64,000 bases of DNA from an uncultured Verrucomicrobiae bacterium (lineage in GTDB: Bacteria > Verrucomicrobiota > Verrucomicrobiia > Chthoniobacterales > UBA10450), in contig CAVSDR010000006.1 of assembly GCA_963726745.1 (NCBI GenBank), positions 1 through 64,000 on the forward strand, given 5' to 3'. Under the pieces are notes generated by a model that worked only from the letters and a program-made list of their open reading frames with translations, had not been told where the DNA came from and made no database searches. Positions 1,461 through 18,641 of the stretch are shown here, piece by piece. The position numbers were made by a program, and so were the translations under genes. Positions within the stretch are counted from its first letter, which is position 1. The number at the start of each line of letters is the position of its first letter.

Positions 1461-1880
1461 GCGGGATATCTGGGAGCCTCTGCGGGCCATCCGGAAGCCT
1501 CTGCGGGATATCCGGGAGCCTCTGCGGGATATCCGGGAGCCTCTGCGGGACATCCGGGAGCCTCTGCGGGATATCTGGGAACCTCTGCGGGATACCTGGG
1601 AACCTCTGCGGGATATCCGGGAACCTCTGCGGGATATCTGGGAACCTCTGCGGGATATCTGGGAACCTCTGCGGGATATCTGGGAACCTCTGCGGGATAT
1701 CTGGGAACCTCTGCGGGATATCTGGGAACCTCTGCGGGATATCTGGGAACCTCTGCGGGATATCTGGGAACCTCTGCGGGACATCCGGGAGCCTCTGCGG
1801 GATATCCGGGAGCCTCTGCGGGATATCCGGGAACCGCTGCGGGATATCCGGGAGTCTCTGCGGGATATCTGGAAAGTTCT
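1461..1880 (+). repeat. Tandem array of ~20 copies of a 21-bp unit, consensus GCGGGATATC(T/C)GGGA(A/G)CCTCT
   Basis: Units read directly at 21-bp spacing from 1461; central units identical, edge units degenerate; no spacers. Confidence 0.98.
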
Positions 1881-2204
1881 TCGGGACGTCCGGAAAGCCG
1901 GGCGAGACGGGCAGGATTTTCGCAGGATTGAGTCGCACCGCTCGCAAAGATGCGAGGGCGCTTGAGCTAACGAGTGGGCCGAAAAGGGCCGAAAAAGGGC
2001 GTTTTTGCGAAAAGGCGTTGGACTGGCCTAAATACGGAAAAAGCGCGCGGGAGTTCTCGGATTTTTGTCGTTAGGCACTTTTTTTCACTTTTCCGGCGCG
2101 GTGGTGGCACGGCTGCTTTTACAAGGTCTCGAATCCGACGAGTCCCAGTAAGACCCGCCGGCGCATAAACGAAAAACCAACCAGAAAGAGAAAGAACCAA
2201 GAAC

Positions 2205-2825
2205 ATGATTGTAAAAGCATCTATCGAATGGCTTACGGCCATCTCCGACGCAGAACTCGCCAGCCAGACCGATAACATCGTGACGGCTGTCACCGGGAAC
2301 GCCAACTTCCCCATGCCCAGCCCGAGCCTGGGACTCATCAGCTCCGCCCTCGCGGAATTCCGCGCCGCGGTGGCCAACGCCGCCGGGGGCGGCAAGGAAC
2401 TGACCGCGATCAAGAACGCCAAGCGGGCCGCATTGGTCTCGCTCCTGCGCCAGCTCGCGAGCTACCTCACCATCACCAGCGCGCACGACCTGGCGAAGTT
2501 GCTCTCAAGCAAGTTCCCCAACCAGAAGCCGACCCGCACCAAGGTGGGCCAGCTCCCCGCCCCGGAATCGCCGGTGCTGCGCCAGGGGAAACCGTCCGGC
2601 CAGCTCGATGCCTCGGTCACGCCGGTCTACGGAGCTTCCTCCTATAACTGGCGCGTGGCCCTGGCTTCCGCTCCGGAGACCTACCTGCAAACCGCGCAGA
2701 CCGTCGGTGGCCGCACCTCCTTCAAGGGCTTAACCCCCGGGGAGTCCTACCTGGTCGAGGCCAACGCCGTCGGCGCCGAAGGCCCCAGCGATTGGAGCGA
2801 CGACGCGGAAATGATGGTGGTGTAA
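2205..2825 (+). CDS. Uncharacterised ~206-aa protein, helical N-terminus plus C-terminal fibronectin type III-like domain (paralogue of 17340..17954)
   Basis: C-terminal GLTPGESYLVEANAVGAEGPSDWS fits the FN3 pattern; AG-rich leader before ATG; no signal peptide visible. Confidence 0.8.
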   Translation: MIVKASIEWLTAISDAELASQTDNIVTAVTGNANFPMPSPSLGLISSALAEFRAAVANAAGGGKELTAIKNAKRAALVSLLRQLASYLTITSAHDLAKLLSSKFPNQKPTRTKVGQLPAPESPVLRQGKPSGQLDASVTPVYGASSYNWRVALASAPETYLQTAQTVGGRTSFKGLTPGESYLVEANAVGAEGPSDWSDDAEMMVV

Positions 2826-2886
2826 GACTACCACGACCGCAGCACAGCGCCCGCCGATAGACACGACGCGGCGCAAACAAAGGGAA

Positions 2887-2918
2887 GGCGCCCGAGGGAT
2901 CGGGCGCCGCTTTCGTTT
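2887..2918 (+). terminator. Probable intrinsic terminator after the FN3-like gene
   Basis: GGCGCCCGA-GGGA-TCGGGCGCC hairpin followed by GCTTTCGTTT. Confidence 0.6.
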
Positions 2919-2936
2919 ATGGGCTCATCCCCGGAG

Positions 2937-3486
2937 CAGGAAGGCAGGAATCAATTTAGAAGCCAGGAAACCAAAAAGAAGAGACGAATCAGGAAGGCAG
3001 AAAAACAGGAATTAAATTTGGAAGCCAGGAAACCAGAAAGGTAAATGAAGCAGAAAGGCAGGAAATTAATCTGGATGCCAGGAAACAAGGAAGAAGAGAC
3101 GAATCAGGAAAGCAGAAAAACAGGAGTTACATTTGGAAGGCGGGAGACCAGAAAGGGAAACTAAGACTGCCACTCGCCATCTCTTTTCCGGCTTCTCGGT
3201 TCTAAATTATCTACCTCCCTTTCCTGCTTTCCCACGTTCCTGATTCCCCAGCATTTCTGGCTTCCTGGTTTCCGAATTTATCTCTTCCTCTTCCTGCTTA
3301 CCCCCGTTCCTGATTCATCAGTTATTCTGGCTTCCTGGTTTCCAAATTAGTCTCCTCCCCTTCTGCTTTCCTACCCTCCTGATTTATCGGCTTTCCTGGT
3401 TTCCCGGTTTCCAAATCAATCTCTGCCCCTTCCTACTTTCCTACGTTCCTAATTCATCTCCTCTCCCTTCCTGCTTCCTGTTTTCG
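2937..3486. repeat. REPIN/BIME-like palindromic array: 4 purine-rich units followed by 4 inverted pyrimidine-rich units
   Basis: CAGGAAGGCAGGAA...AATTTGGAAGCCAGGAAACCAGAAAG units at 2937, 2990, 3051, 3105; inverted TTCTGGCTTCCTGGTTTCCAAATT...TTCCTGATT units from ~3184. Confidence 0.9.
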
Positions 3487-4906
3487 TTATCCAGCCGCTT
3501 CCTGGATGAGTTCCCAGACTTTGCGCAGGTGTTCCTCGGTGGTGAGAAGGTTGCCTAGGCCGAGGCGCATGACGGTGCGGCCTTTGAGCTTGGTTTGCAT
3601 GAGGTAGGTCTCGCCGGCGGCGTTGAGTTGCTCGACGAGTTTGCCGTTGGCGGCGTCGTCGGCGCCGCGCAGGCGGAAGCAGACCACGGGCATGACCGTG
3701 GGCGCGGCCAGCTCGAAGCGGTCGCTCGCTTCGATCCACCCGGTGAAGAGCTGGGCCAGGCGCTGGTGGTCGCGGATGCGCGCGGCCATGCCCTCGCGGC
3801 CGAAGGCGCGCCAGATGATCCAGGCCTTGAGCGCGCGGAAACGGCGGCCCAGCTGGACGCCGTAGTCCATGTAGTTAATCTCCGCGCCGGCGGCGTCGCC
3901 GCGCAGGTATTCCGGCACGAGGGTGAAGACGTCGCGCAGCCGCCGGATGTCGCGCACATAGAGCGCGCTAAAATCGAACGGGACAAAGAGCATCTTGTGC
4001 GGGTTAATGACTAACGAGTCGGCCTCGGCCCAGCCTTCCTGGACCCAAGCGCACTCGGGCAGAATCGCGAGGCCGCCGCCGTAAGCGGCATCGAGGTGGA
4101 GCCACATCGCCATGCTCGCGGCAGACGCGGGCGATCTCGCGCACGGGATCGACGCTGGCGGTGGAGGTGGTGCCGACGGTGGCGACGACGGCGAGCGGGA
4201 AGAACTCTTTCCGGCGATCGGCGGCAACCGCTTCGCGCAGCGCGGCGACATCCATCCGAAAGGCTGCGTCGCTCGGGATGCGGCGGACGTTGTGCTCCCC
4301 CAGCCCAAGAGCGATGGCGGCTTTCTCGACTGAGCTATGCGCCTGGTCGGACGCGTAGATGCGGAAGATCGGCAGCTCGGCGCGACCGGAAAGGCCAAGG
4401 GTGCGCACGGAGGTGCCGGCTTCTTCGCGCGCGGCCGCGAGCGCGTGCATCGTGGAGATGGAAGCGGTGTCGTAGACCACGCCACTGAACTCGTTAGGTA
4501 GACCGAGCCATTGCTGGAGCCAGCCGAGGACGACGGTCTCGAGCTCGGTGGCCGCGGGCGAGGTGCGCCAGGTCATGGCGTTAACGTTGAGCGCGGCGGT
4601 GAGCATCTCCGCGAGGATGCCGGGGCCATTCGTGGTCGTGCCGAAGTAGCCCATGAACTGCGGGTGCGCCCAGTGGGTGATCCCCGGCATGATCAGCTGG
4701 TCGAACTCGGCGAGAATGCAGTCTAATTTCTCCGCCTCCTCCGGCGCGTGCGCGGGCAAGGAATCCCGGATCGCGCCCGGCTTGCCCGTGGGCGAAATCC
4801 GCCGGCCGGCGATGCCTTCGCGGTAATCCGCGATCCAATCGGCCACCCGGTGAAGGTGCTGTCTAAATTCCTCCGGGGGGATGTCGCCTAACGAGTCGTC
4901 GCCCAT
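3487..4906 (-). CDS. Group II PLP-dependent (aromatic L-amino acid-type) decarboxylase; frameshift near 4105
   Basis: PGITHWAHPQF, TSPAATELE, HSSVEKA, WLHLDAAYGG and NPHK (PLP lysine) across two ORFs. Confidence 0.9.
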
Positions 4907-11079: not shown

Positions 11080-11931
11080 CTATTGGACGCCGGAAAAAGC
11101 CTCAACCACGAGGCGCGTTGCTTGGGCGATCACACGATCCTGCTGCTCTTTCGGCAGCCCGGGCATGTCGGTGTAGATCGCGAGGAAAATCGGGCCGCGT
11201 CCCGGCGGCTGGAGAATGGCGACATCGTTGACCACGCCGTCGCCGCTGCGGCCCGTCTTATCGCCCACCTTCCACTCCGCAGGAACGCCGGCGCGGATCA
11301 AGGAGTCGCCGGTCGTGTTCCCTTCCATCCAGGCGAGGAGCTGTGCGCGGCTCCCGGCAGACAGCACTTTGCCGGTGAAGAAATTTTGCAGATTTGCCAC
11401 CATGGCCGCGGCCGTGGTGGTGTCGCGCTCCTCGCCGGCGACGGCGCGATTCAGCTCCGGCTCAGCCCGGTCGGAACGCGTGGTCGTGTCGCCAACAGAG
11501 CGGAGAAAACGCGTCAAGCCTTCCGGTCCGCCGATGGTGGCCAGGAGGAGATTGGCCGCGGTGTTATCGCTCACTTGCATCGCGGCCGCGCACAAATCCG
11601 ACACGGTCATGCTGCCTTCGGCCACGTGGGCGCGGGTGACGGGCGCATATTCCAGGAGATCCTCCGGGCCGTAGGCGATCCGGCGGTCGGGTTTCTCCTG
11701 CCCTTGGTCGATCCGCTGAAGGACGGCGGCAGTCAGCGGAAGCTTGAAAGTGCTGCAAAAGCGGAAGCGCTCCTTCGGTTGGAAAGCGATGCTCTTGCCG
11801 CTGGCGGAATCGAGCGCGACCAAGCCCAGGCGCCCGCCGGTTTCGCGCGCGAGCGCGGCGATTTTCTCCTCACTGCCGGCGTGCGCGCTCGCGAGCGCGA
11901 GCAGAAGACAGCTGACTAAACGGAGAAGCAT
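11080..11931 (-). CDS. bla: Class A serine beta-lactamase
   Basis: Signal peptide; CSTFK (SxxK), SDN, EPELN (omega loop), DKTG, NDVA. Confidence 0.93.
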   Translation of the reverse strand: MLLRLVSCLLLALASAHAGSEEKIAALARETGGRLGLVALDSASGKSIAFQPKERFRFCSTFKLPLTAAVLQRIDQGQEKPDRRIAYGPEDLLEYAPVTRAHVAEGSMTVSDLCAAAMQVSDNTAANLLLATIGGPEGLTRFLRSVGDTTTRSDRAEPELNRAVAGEERDTTTAAAMVANLQNFFTGKVLSAGSRAQLLAWMEGNTTGDSLIRAGVPAEWKVGDKTGRSGDGVVNDVAILQPPGRGPIFLAIYTDMPGLPKEQQDRVIAQATRLVVEAFSGVQ

Positions 11932-16486: not shown

Positions 16487-16660
16487 AAAGTGAGCCTGCA
16501 AGGTGGCGAGAAACCGCCAGGCGGCAAGCAGATGGCGGCGAGCTTGCCGGTCCCGGGCACACGCGCACAAAGGCGCAGCCTGGCGCAAGCTCTCTCCGAC
16601 GCCCACTTCCCCGGGACGGATTGCAGACAGCCCTCCCGTCCACTGCCACCGGATCAAAGG

Positions 16661-16864
16661 GAGGAGGATTTGGAAACCAGGAAACCAGAAAGCTGCAGCA
16701 GTAATCGGCAAAGCCGAATTTCTGGCTTCCTGGCTTTTAAATTTAAACTCCGCTAAGAGGAAGCCTCTACCTGCGCAAAGAGAAGGAGTGAATTTGAAAA
16801 CCAGAAACAGAGGAAGCAGCAGTAACCGGCGAAGCCGAATTTCTGGCTTCCTGGTTTCTAAATT
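16661..16864. repeat. Two tandem REPIN-like hairpin units of the same family as 2937..3486
   Basis: TTTGGAAACCAGGAAACCAGAAAG-(CGGCAAAGCCG loop)-TTTCTGGCTTCCTGG; repeated at ~16661 and ~16782. Confidence 0.88.
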
Positions 16865-16895
16865 GTTAAATCCCCTCTGAGGGTGAACCTGCCGG

Positions 16896-17144
16896 CTAAG
16901 AGTAACCGGCGGTCGCGTGGTGCAGCAGTCCCTGCTCCCGTAGCTTATTGATCGCTTCCACCCGGTTCCCCACCTCCAGCTTGCGATAGCCACTCGCCAG
17001 GTGCTTCTTCACCGTCTCTTCGCTCCGGCCAATGATCACCGCCGTCTCGCCGCGCGTCTTCCCTTCTGCGATCCAGAAGAAGACCTGCTGCTCACAAGGA
17101 GTCAGCAATCCGGAGGTATGCGGGGCCGCCGATTTCGCAGGCAT
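16896..17144 (-). CDS. Stand-alone LuxR/GerE-type HTH regulator (82 aa)
   Basis: LTPCEQQVFFWIAEGKTRGETAVIIGRSEETVKKHLASGYRKLEVGNR fits the LuxR HTH pattern. Confidence 0.88.
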   Translation of the reverse strand: MPAKSAAPHTSGLLTPCEQQVFFWIAEGKTRGETAVIIGRSEETVKKHLASGYRKLEVGNRVEAINKLREQGLLHHATAGYS

Positions 17145-17339: not shown

Positions 17340-17954
17340 TTAGACCGCGATCTTCGTCACCGGCTCGCTCCAGTCGCTCTGGCCGGTGCTGCCACCCAGC
17401 CCGATGAGCTGGAAGAGATACGTCGAACCCGCGACGAGGCTGTCGAACAGGATCTTGCGCGAGCTTTGGAAGGTGATCACCGGGCCCCACTCACCCCCCT
17501 GCACTTTGCAACGGCCCTGGATGGCGCGCCGGTTCGGGTCGCCCTGCACCCGCAGCTTCACTTCGCCGGTCTGCCCGTACTCTGTGCCCACGATCACCGG
17601 CGCATTCAGCACCGACTGCGTGCGGTTCGTGTTTACCGGTTCATACCCGGAGCTGAGGAGGACCGTCAGGTCATCATCGCACTGGATGTCCACGTAGCTG
17701 GCATTCTTATCCAGCGCCGCGGCCAGCGTGGCCCGGGCCGCATCCTTCATTGCGGTCGCCAGCGTGCCACCTTTGTAGGCGGCGATCATCGCCTGGTCGA
17801 AAGCCTGCTTCATCGCCTGCACCGCCGTCGGCGCCACCGGAGGATCCGACAGTTTTGGGTTATTCGTCAGACCGACACTCGTCTTACCGGCGAATTTACT
17901 GAGTTCGAGATCGGAGGATTTATTGTAAATCCTGCTGGTTCGTATGGAAGGCAT
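17340..17954 (-). CDS. Uncharacterised helical+FN3-like protein, paralogue of 2205..2825 (alternative GTG start 17966)
   Basis: Shares SD.EL, T.N, A..GG..TA.K.A.RA.L, ASY, DL..LLSS and L..G..Y...G.SDWS with 2205..2825. Confidence 0.8.
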   Translation of the reverse strand: MPSIRTSRIYNKSSDLELSKFAGKTSVGLTNNPKLSDPPVAPTAVQAMKQAFDQAMIAAYKGGTLATAMKDAARATLAAALDKNASYVDIQCDDDLTVLLSSGYEPVNTNRTQSVLNAPVIVGTEYGQTGEVKLRVQGDPNRRAIQGRCKVQGGEWGPVITFQSSRKILFDSLVAGSTYLFQLIGLGGSTGQSDWSEPVTKIAV

Positions 17955-18084
17955 CTGATGCCTCACTTTCTAAGCCGGCGGTTTTTTGCCGGCATACACT
18001 AGGTTTTGGGCGGAACACCCGACCGCACTCGCGTTCAACGCGTCCGCTTTCGCCTAGGGTATTGAGCAACGCCGATGCCCAGCC

Positions 18085-18145: not shown

Positions 18146-18276
18146 GGAATCAGGAAGGCAGGAAAGGAGGAGTGAATTTGGAAACCAGGGAACCAGAAAA
18201 GCTGCGGAGCCGCCACCAAAGGTCCGGCACGCGACCGAAGACCGTCCGCTCCCTTTCTGGTTTCCTGGCTTCCAAA
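18146..18276. repeat. REPIN-like hairpin unit, same family as 2937..3486
   Basis: GAATCAGGAAGGCAGGAAAGGAGGAGTGAATTTGGAAACCAGGGAACCAGAAA...TTTCTGGTTTCCTGGCTTCCAAAT. Confidence 0.88.
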
Positions 18277-18389
18277 TAATTCCCTCTTCCGAGCTCCCTG
18301 CGACCTAAGTCCTTCACTCCCGGAGGCAAGCGCCTCGCACCCCAGCCGAAAAGCCGGGGGATATCCCCGGCGACCGCGACCGGAACGCT

Positions 18390-18641
18390 CTCGCAAAAAA
18401 CCGCATCTGGCCGCGATCCAATTGGATCGTGGCCCGATCCAGTTAGATCCCACCGCGCCCCCACCACATCCCCGCCGGCGGAAACCGCGGCCCCGCCGCA
18501 CCCAACGAATCGCGGCCACGTTCCCATGGGATCAGGTCGTTAGCTCCCCTCCCCACAGCCGCTTCCGCCCCGATCTCCCCGCCCTCCATCCAGCGCCGAA
18601 CTGCCCGAGGCCAGATGCTCTTCTCCATCAGCCGCATCCCG
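18390..18641 (-). repeat. Degenerate 21-bp-period tandem array (~12 units)
   Basis: (C/G)ATC recurs in phase at 18404, 18425, 18446, 18467, 18530, 18572, 18635 (GATG at 18614); units at 18411 and 18432 are visibly similar. Confidence 0.65.

Follow-up and report, generated by a model that had tools for sequence, protein, structure and literature searches.

A 21-bp tandem array linked to the gene of a small helical+FN3 protein in Verrucomicrobiota, and its possible reading by that protein

An array of 21-bp tandem repeats lies upstream of a small gene in contig CAVSDR010000006.1 of an uncultured Verrucomicrobiae bacterium. Do array and gene belong together, and if so, what reads the array? We analyzed a stretch of 64,000 nucleotides (the window), for which a first-pass annotation had proposed a candidate module of array, leader, gene, terminator and a palindromic repeat array, present in two copies, with array and gene as one functional unit. 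According to that annotation the array could be a phased binding platform for the protein, a repeat-containing RNA or a length-variable regulatory locus.

Two copies of the locus in the window

TRF placed the array of copy 1 at positions 1461–1886 with a period of 21, 20.3 copies, 92% matches and a score of 649, in agreement with the roughly 20 repeats described before. As listed here it extends over 1461–1900 and comprises 20–21 units, imperfect palindromes that register on the motif of their clade. Each unit is built up from 8–9-bp half-sites flanking a central dyad, together with three free bases. The gene-proximal units are degenerate, and the dyad score of this array taken alone is not significant (p 0.28–0.31). 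The units follow each other head-to-tail without spacers and no cas family was found among 109 flanking ORFs, so the earlier statement that the array is not CRISPR stands. The array begins directly after the stop codon (1456–1458) of an N6-methyltransferase (hsdM-like) gene. This gene (within 57–1458) and a decarboxylase gene on the other side (within 3487–4906) are each split across two frames, probably by assembly errors. The sole DNA sequencing run covers just the flanks and repeat pieces of the locus.

Array and gene are separated by a non-coding leader (1901–2204, plus strand). The ATG at position 2205 is 318 nt past the TRF end of the array, close to the 325 nt given earlier. A scan of the leader detected no terminator-like and no sigma-70-like site. 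It contains a probable sigma-54 (−24/−12) promoter at 2102–2117 (plus strand), a variant with GG and GC at canonical spacing; here and in homologue leaders the motif was identified by the −24/−12 consensus. The gene (2205–2825, plus strand) encodes a helical+FN3 protein of 206 residues without a hydrophobic N-terminal stretch as read from the sequence, in line with the stated lack of a signal peptide. It is followed by a GC-rich hairpin of 9 bp (2887–2908, plus strand), the probable terminator. The first-pass annotation had named a terminator. Terminator-like sites number 2 in the scan against 3.1 expected by chance, and by count the hairpin does not rise above that level.

The large palindromic repeat array described 3' of the gene was also found, as a cluster of REP-like inverted repeats at 2935–3486 with a purine arm and a pyrimidine arm (folding z −5.7). 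It belongs to a genome-wide family with 13 clusters, whereas 116 homologue loci of other genomes contained 2 weak matches. We thus regard the family as a passenger and ruled out the REP-like hairpin as a part of the module, contrary to the original proposal. The label REPIN found no support either: the one Y1_Tnp match of the genome (weak, C3:995715) adjoins none of the 13 clusters. Further clusters outside the module are located at 16651–16882 and, inside the leader of copy 2, at 18147–18283. A word of the family also occurs at C6:373352, right before a gene for a GxxExxY (PF13366) nuclease (C6:373390–373728).

Copy 2 lies on the minus strand. Its gene (17340–17954) encodes a distant helical+FN3 paralogue of 204 residues (28% identity over 198 residues, profile E 3e-49), and a sigma-54-type promoter motif matches at 18065–18080. 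Its array (18411–18536) is degenerate, with about six units in 21-bp phase, three of them with recognizable palindromes, and a motif unlike that of copy 1. TRF reported 2 copies, and the lag-21 score is 24.6 (80 of 4863 genome tiles reach 20). The order of the parts differs from copy 1, because a REP-like insert separates array and gene. Copy 2 is weaker than the first-pass annotation had stated; its paralogue is real. Downstream of copy 2 there is a solo LuxR-type HTH gene (16896–17144, minus strand), which recurs in 6 of 119 homologue loci and is at most accessory. Beside copy 2, at 18.7–20.4 kb, we noted a putative thiolase-like fragment followed by two hypothetical genes of lower GC content without Pfam match. 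Elsewhere in the window, at 11080–11931 (minus strand), there is a gene of the Beta-lactamase family (Pfam Beta-lactamase2, E 1.8e-47).

Outside the window, a third paralogue on contig C7 has no clear array (score 12.8). The earlier observation that neither the 21-bp arrays nor the REP-like family occur elsewhere is correct within the window, but the genome holds about five more clear 21-bp arrays besides the REP-like clusters mentioned above. Several arrays were seen without a helical gene nearby: C3:185866–186532 (L192), C6:745907–746250 (L195), C2:225959–226050 and C2:388234–388303. In another genome (G013), an independent gene-less array of period 21 (L229, score 53) lies just upstream of prpD, the site of copy 2 in the window. 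The 7-mer CTAACGA/TCGTTAG, found in the window for example at 1966–1972, 2068–2074 and 4010–4016, occurs 2025 times genome-wide versus 136 expected from a second-order model. It is the most over-represented 7-mer and is also present within genes. A role in DNA uptake, a Chi-like function or recognition by a nucleoid protein would be conceivable.

The helical+FN3 family and its linkage to the array

An AlphaFold2 model of the 206-residue protein, based on 91 sequences, reached a pLDDT of 96.8. It comprises an N-terminal helical domain (residues 9–101) and a C-terminal β-sandwich (residues 115–206), which the fold search assigned to FN3 (Z 15.5, rmsd 1.3, 89 residues aligned to integrin beta4). 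For the helical domain the search gave no informative match, just generic bundles with a best Z of 8.2 from a low-confidence model (pLDDT 58.7), and no HTH was found in it. Conserved basic positions of the family are K4, K64, K70, R74, R82 and K108, with conserved K/R along the long helix; the net charge is mildly positive (median +2). Pfam recognized fn3 only, below threshold, in the family proteins of the window, for which NCBIfam, PADLOC and PHROGs returned nothing; such PHROGs hits as were obtained concern FN3 alone. No nuclease match and no catalytic domain were seen in the 206-residue protein, and the fold searches listed no Nop-domain Tas, Vipr effector or ToxN entry.

The family includes 787 representatives at E ≤ 1e-10, some of which match via FN3 only. 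Its Atlas clusters are commonly from Bacteroidota or Verrucomicrobiota, and the Bacteroidota range rests on those clusters. The distribution is patchy, with members in 18 of 61 relatives and in 6 of 301 genomes of the phylum; the highest number per genome is 18 matches (in a genome labelled Lysobacterales). No match was found in phage or plasmid collections or in viral contigs. Both sites in the window are lineage-specific: in relatives the gene is absent from 25 of 25 loci beyond the decarboxylase gene and from 23 of 23 before prpD, several of these flanks being short. Four of these site loci as well as L004 (one of the 92 upstream regions analyzed below, below threshold) come from genomes flagged as unpublished (G030, G001); no conclusion hinges on them. 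The protein tree was a quick one and serves for display.

A collection of 190 homologue loci yielded 169 with a full-length gene and 119 after removal of redundancy, of which 92 provided 700 nt upstream and 94 provided 700 nt downstream. A period of 21 or 42 was the best one in 86 of the 92 upstream regions versus 7 of the 94 downstream regions; the control lags 20, 22, 41 and 43 gave 3 of 92. Strong arrays (score at least 30) were present in 69 of 92 upstream regions, in none of 94 downstream regions and in 28 of 4863 genome tiles. The array-gene module is real and strongly supported by these counts, and the enrichment on which the first-pass annotation had staked its proposal of one functional unit is pronounced. 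In 15 of 92 loci the upstream score is below 20 despite intact genes. Arrays have a median of about 15 units, and the median distance from their end to the ATG is 260 nt. Two unit types alternate in about half of the arrays; a period of 44 bp or a pure 42-bp period occurs in the homologue loci L007 and L069, and 41-bp periods were seen too.

We found no third conserved part. The commonest neighbors are integron-type integrases and solo LuxR genes (6 of 119 loci each), response-regulator genes recur in 4 of 119, and the 109 flanking ORFs are a mixed set of mostly unrelated housekeeping genes, without a match to a sigma-54 activator at E ≤ 1e-8. Neither a transposase nor a reverse transcriptase recurs as a linked partner among the homologue loci. 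A defence-island reading was considered, as hsdM precedes the copy in the window and an hsdR-like gene (read from the translation) the one on C7, and was rejected given the housekeeping neighbors across loci and the lack of a PADLOC match.

The strict sigma-54 motif is present on the sense strand of 41 of 107 homologue leaders and on the antisense strand of none (0.14 expected). It is located about 80 nt before the ATG, and the array ends 36–430 nt upstream of it. All three gene copies in the genome of the window carry a version of this motif. Its position on the sense strand before the ATG indicates that transcription of the gene likely starts from a separate promoter, between array and ATG.

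Unit symmetry and unit sequence follow the protein family

Unit sequences differ among loci. When compared with column permutations, 53 of 74 arrays proved palindromic (51 of 74 in the comparison with two other families described below). In the main clade of 39 arrays, which includes the window, the pooled profile is symmetric and conservation peaks at positions −8, −2, +2 and +8 relative to the dyad; this motif is common to many Verrucomicrobiota.

To what does the unit sequence respond, the protein or the host? Array similarity climbs with protein identity (rho 0.54, 69 arrays, reached in 0 of 500 permutations), from 0.28 below 25% identity via 0.43 at 45–55% to 0.60 above 65%, with a null value of 0.29. 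Pairs of arrays from the same genome (n = 27) show no excess similarity. Among six arrays of the genome of the window, 14 of 15 pairs have a similarity of 0.22–0.42. The genome labelled Lysobacterales has measurable arrays at 10 of 14 loci examined, and these are mutually unlike (median 0.30) except for a recent duplicate pair (86% identity, similarity 0.88); its paralogues are mostly old (median identity 47%). Within this genome the correlation of array and protein is not significant (rho 0.24, p 0.11), and one pair with 73% protein identity has unlike arrays (0.24). Taken together, the unit sequence follows the protein and not the host.

Starting from the other 21-bp arrays in the genome of the window, we came upon two further unnamed families, an all-helical family and a helical+β family. 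Arrays lie upstream of 19 of 29 and 22 of 27 of their genes, respectively, and downstream of 1 of 29 and 0 of 29. The single downstream case is a 229-residue all-helical protein gene (C4:151261–152374, L194), whose array resembles the large gene-less one on C3 (similarity 0.59). Palindromic arrays account for 16 of 22 in the helical+β family and for 1 of 19 in the all-helical family. The sigma-54 motif is absent from both families (0 of 29 and 0 of 27), and in the 10-array genome a single loose match was found in 14 loci. From such arrays free of sigma-54 motifs and from the family-specific symmetry we conclude that period, symmetry and wording of the units go together with the protein family rather than with the host or the sigma factor. 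Each half of the all-helical protein shows a weak resemblance to the helical domain of the window protein (HHalign 13% and 62%, decoys 0.1–1%), and the two halves do not align to each other (0.5%). A homology of the three families is at best weakly suggested by these scores. A cognate reader would predict the pattern observed: if the distant resemblance holds, a two-fold dimer would sit on dyads and a duplicated single chain on asymmetric units.

Proposed mechanism, alternatives and known systems

Based on these results we propose the following mechanism, which we consider evenly balanced between right and wrong. Array and downstream gene would form a two-part cassette. Each protein would bind the phased DNA of its own array, likely as a dimer on each palindromic 21-bp unit (two helical turns), and would coat one face of the helix cooperatively. 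The resulting nucleoprotein coat would likely gate the promoter of the gene itself. The adjacent protein presumably reads the units via a stripe of basic residues on the helical domain, FN3 may serve as a packing or partner module, and paralogues in one cell would read different arrays. The fixed period may be the footprint of a protein polymer, while the letters might drift by repeat homogenization. As a guess, the whole would be a nucleoprotein patch under its own control, spreading along with the cassette. Of the three roles offered at the outset, the phased platform fits best, with binding as its conjectural part. The first-pass annotation had missed the palindromic nature of the units, the sigma-54-type promoter and the two further helical families with such arrays. 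Several points count against a protein that reads its own array. Physical linkage by itself would make array and gene descend together, and related loci are not independent of each other. Gene-less arrays exist, as do intact genes without a clear array (C7 and the 15 low-scoring loci). Finally, the protein has no HTH, no informative match for its helical fold and a mildly positive charge, and the array of the window is not significantly palindromic.

The array could instead act as a repeat RNA and partner of the protein. We consider this unlikely, although the layout and the protein-specific repeat sequence resemble type III toxin-antitoxin loci as characterized in the available part of a published survey (PMC3401426). 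In its favor, folding is stronger than in periodic controls for 38 of 74 arrays (z < −2), and one of the two registers has more G-U pairs than expected (z 4.4). Since the array of copy 1 abuts the stop codon of the upstream gene, read-through into it would be possible. However, there is no excess of Watson-Crick pairs within the units (z −4.6 and 0.0 in the two registers), and pairing between the two arms of a unit does not exceed that of permuted arms; per-unit RNA hairpins were rejected for lack of covariation. The array in the window folds like its shuffles (z 0.26), Rfam gave three chance-level matches below the gathering score and none over this array, and the protein matches neither a nuclease nor a PADLOC entry. 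Moreover, the promoter motif is downstream of the array and no terminator lies between array and gene in the window. It is very improbable that the array encodes a peptide, namely an amphipathic one with a 7-residue repeat, read from the opposite strand relative to the gene. The array of the window is free of stops in all six frames, and its variants are conservative in one minus frame. In the 39 main-clade arrays that minus frame has 33 stops versus 53 expected, and its synonymous fraction is 0.31 versus 0.22 in a 35-array subset. This deficit of stops, together with conserved bases at every third position of the units, casts some doubt on the non-coding status. Yet the minus frame is stop-free in just 21 of 39 arrays (the plus frame in 14), variation is the same at first and third codon positions (0.42 and 0.44) without wobble, and there is no consistent start codon in the main clade, where an in-frame stop immediately precedes several of the arrays. 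A coding array was rejected, as no frame is open in more than 24 of the full set of 74 arrays.

A host regulator, either a sigma-54 activator or a dimer of the NarL/LuxR type, might use the array as an oversized enhancer or operator, with the protein being no more than the regulated output. NarL/LuxR-type dimers read 7-2-7 palindromes. We rate this explanation as distinctly unlikely. It would account for the sigma-54 motifs downstream of the arrays, for the LuxR and response-regulator genes among the few recurring neighbors and for the wide occurrence of the main-clade motif in Verrucomicrobiota, and six strong matches to sigma-54 activators are present in the genome of the window. It fits poorly with arrays that differ within one genome, here as well as in the ten-array genome, with a motif that tracks the protein and not the host, and with the arrays kept without any sigma-54 motif in the two other families. 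The last alternative, quite improbable in our view, treats the array as the footprint of a spreading selfish cassette: the protein would help to make or copy phased repeats, which would be products or mobility signals rather than regulatory sites. The patchy distribution and the number of matches per genome (up to 18) point in this direction, and so do the window sites that lack the gene in relatives, the gene-less arrays, including the one before prpD, and the six loci adjoining integron-type integrases. The protein, on the other hand, has no visible catalytic domain and no recurring transposase or reverse transcriptase beside it, the phage, plasmid and viral sequences hold no match, and the paralogues within a genome are mostly old.

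The preferred reading, a protein that binds its own array, can be extended. As a tentative and somewhat doubtful generalization, a widespread superfamily of small helical proteins, each with its own two-turn array, may constitute a new class of DNA readers that are orthogonal to each other and diversify fast. Homodimers would read palindromes and internally duplicated members asymmetric units, and all would polymerize at a 21-bp pitch; they would be the binders, perhaps even the source, of constant-size 20–21-nt repeats, with FN3 as an intracellular scaffold or a DNA-contacting Ig fold. If true, this would give a role to an unannotated family. Matched and mismatched pairs of protein and array are available from single genomes with up to 10 arrays. 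Should the pairs prove orthogonal, the small proteins would represent a new DNA-binding family that comes with natural variants of specificity, and they would offer a new route to phased nucleoprotein patches.

How does the module relate to known systems? Plasmid iterons and partition centromeres (F sopC, parC) are helically phased tandem sites beside the gene of their cognate binder, which often autoregulates. The module shares the phased direct repeats beside a putative cognate gene. It differs by the absence of Rep, ParA/ParB or an actin/tubulin partner in the protein or its recurring neighbors, by its chromosomal location with several paralogues per genome and no plasmid match, and by an unrelated fold. 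Enhancers of sigma-54 promoters (UAS) consist of a few tandem palindromes upstream of a −24/−12 promoter. The sites described here likewise lie upstream of a −24/−12 motif (strict in the 41 leaders, a variant in the window), but there are about 15 of them, their motif is specific to the paralogue and not to the host, and arrays occur without sigma-54 promoters as well. Arrays also differ within genomes, although a genome has several sigma-54 activators.

Type III toxin-antitoxin systems (ToxIN, CptIN and TenpIN) have, according to the available part of PMC3401426, pseudoknot RNA units of 31–46 nt or longer, and their array follows a promoter and is set off from the gene by a terminator. In both systems tandem repeats precede a cognate gene, and the repeat sequence is locus-specific. 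The module has 21-bp dyad units, a promoter between array and gene and an FN3-containing protein; no terminator of this kind is present in the window at 1886–2205, and no match to a ToxN/CptN/TenpN-type ribonuclease was found in Pfam, NCBIfam or PADLOC. The BrickBuilt MITE of Porphyromonas gingivalis, as far as the accessible text of PMC4596501 describes it, is an intergenic 23-nt minisatellite without spacers, with a leader and inverted-repeat ends. Unit length, leader and lack of spacers are similar; there, one sequence family is found without a cognate gene, whereas the arrays of the module differ in sequence from each other and are each paired with a gene. TIGR/VIPR arrays have a period of 18 or 5 nt in the accessible part of 10.64898/2026.10.21.760802, in contrast to 21 or 42 at our loci. 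The REP-like repeats resemble the REPIN/RAYT system as outlined in the accessible part of PMC3116915, as extragenic inverted repeats that form hairpins and are dispersed over 13 genome sites. They differ in having no RAYT beside the clusters, few copies, purine/pyrimidine-skewed arms and no link to the module.

Literature searches gave no description of such an array-gene module. The main texts of two mining preprints (10.64898/2026.10.21.760802 and 10.64898/2026.09.22.753630) contain none of the terms '21 nt', 'fibronectin' or 'Verrucomicrob'; their supplements may hold such arrays. The module is apparently undescribed in print. The closest class of repeats is that of Subirana and Messeguer (PMC8161180), whose accessible text reports bacterial tandem repeats of a constant 20–21 nt (and 40–41 nt), generally non-coding, with several sequence families per genome and Bacillus as the main taxa. 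Their fixed length and variable sequence are an acknowledged puzzle, and the authors speculate about a protein that polymerizes on DNA at a constant repeat size (PMC8161180). Our arrays, with a constant unit, variable sequence and generally non-coding character, belong to this class in descriptive terms. In the accessible text of that paper no linked gene is named and the words 'palindrom' and 'upstream' do not appear, whereas the arrays described here are tied to specific helical protein families. The module offers candidate cognate proteins for such repeats. The present analysis adds a test of array sequence against protein versus host, and a unit symmetry that is specific to the protein family.
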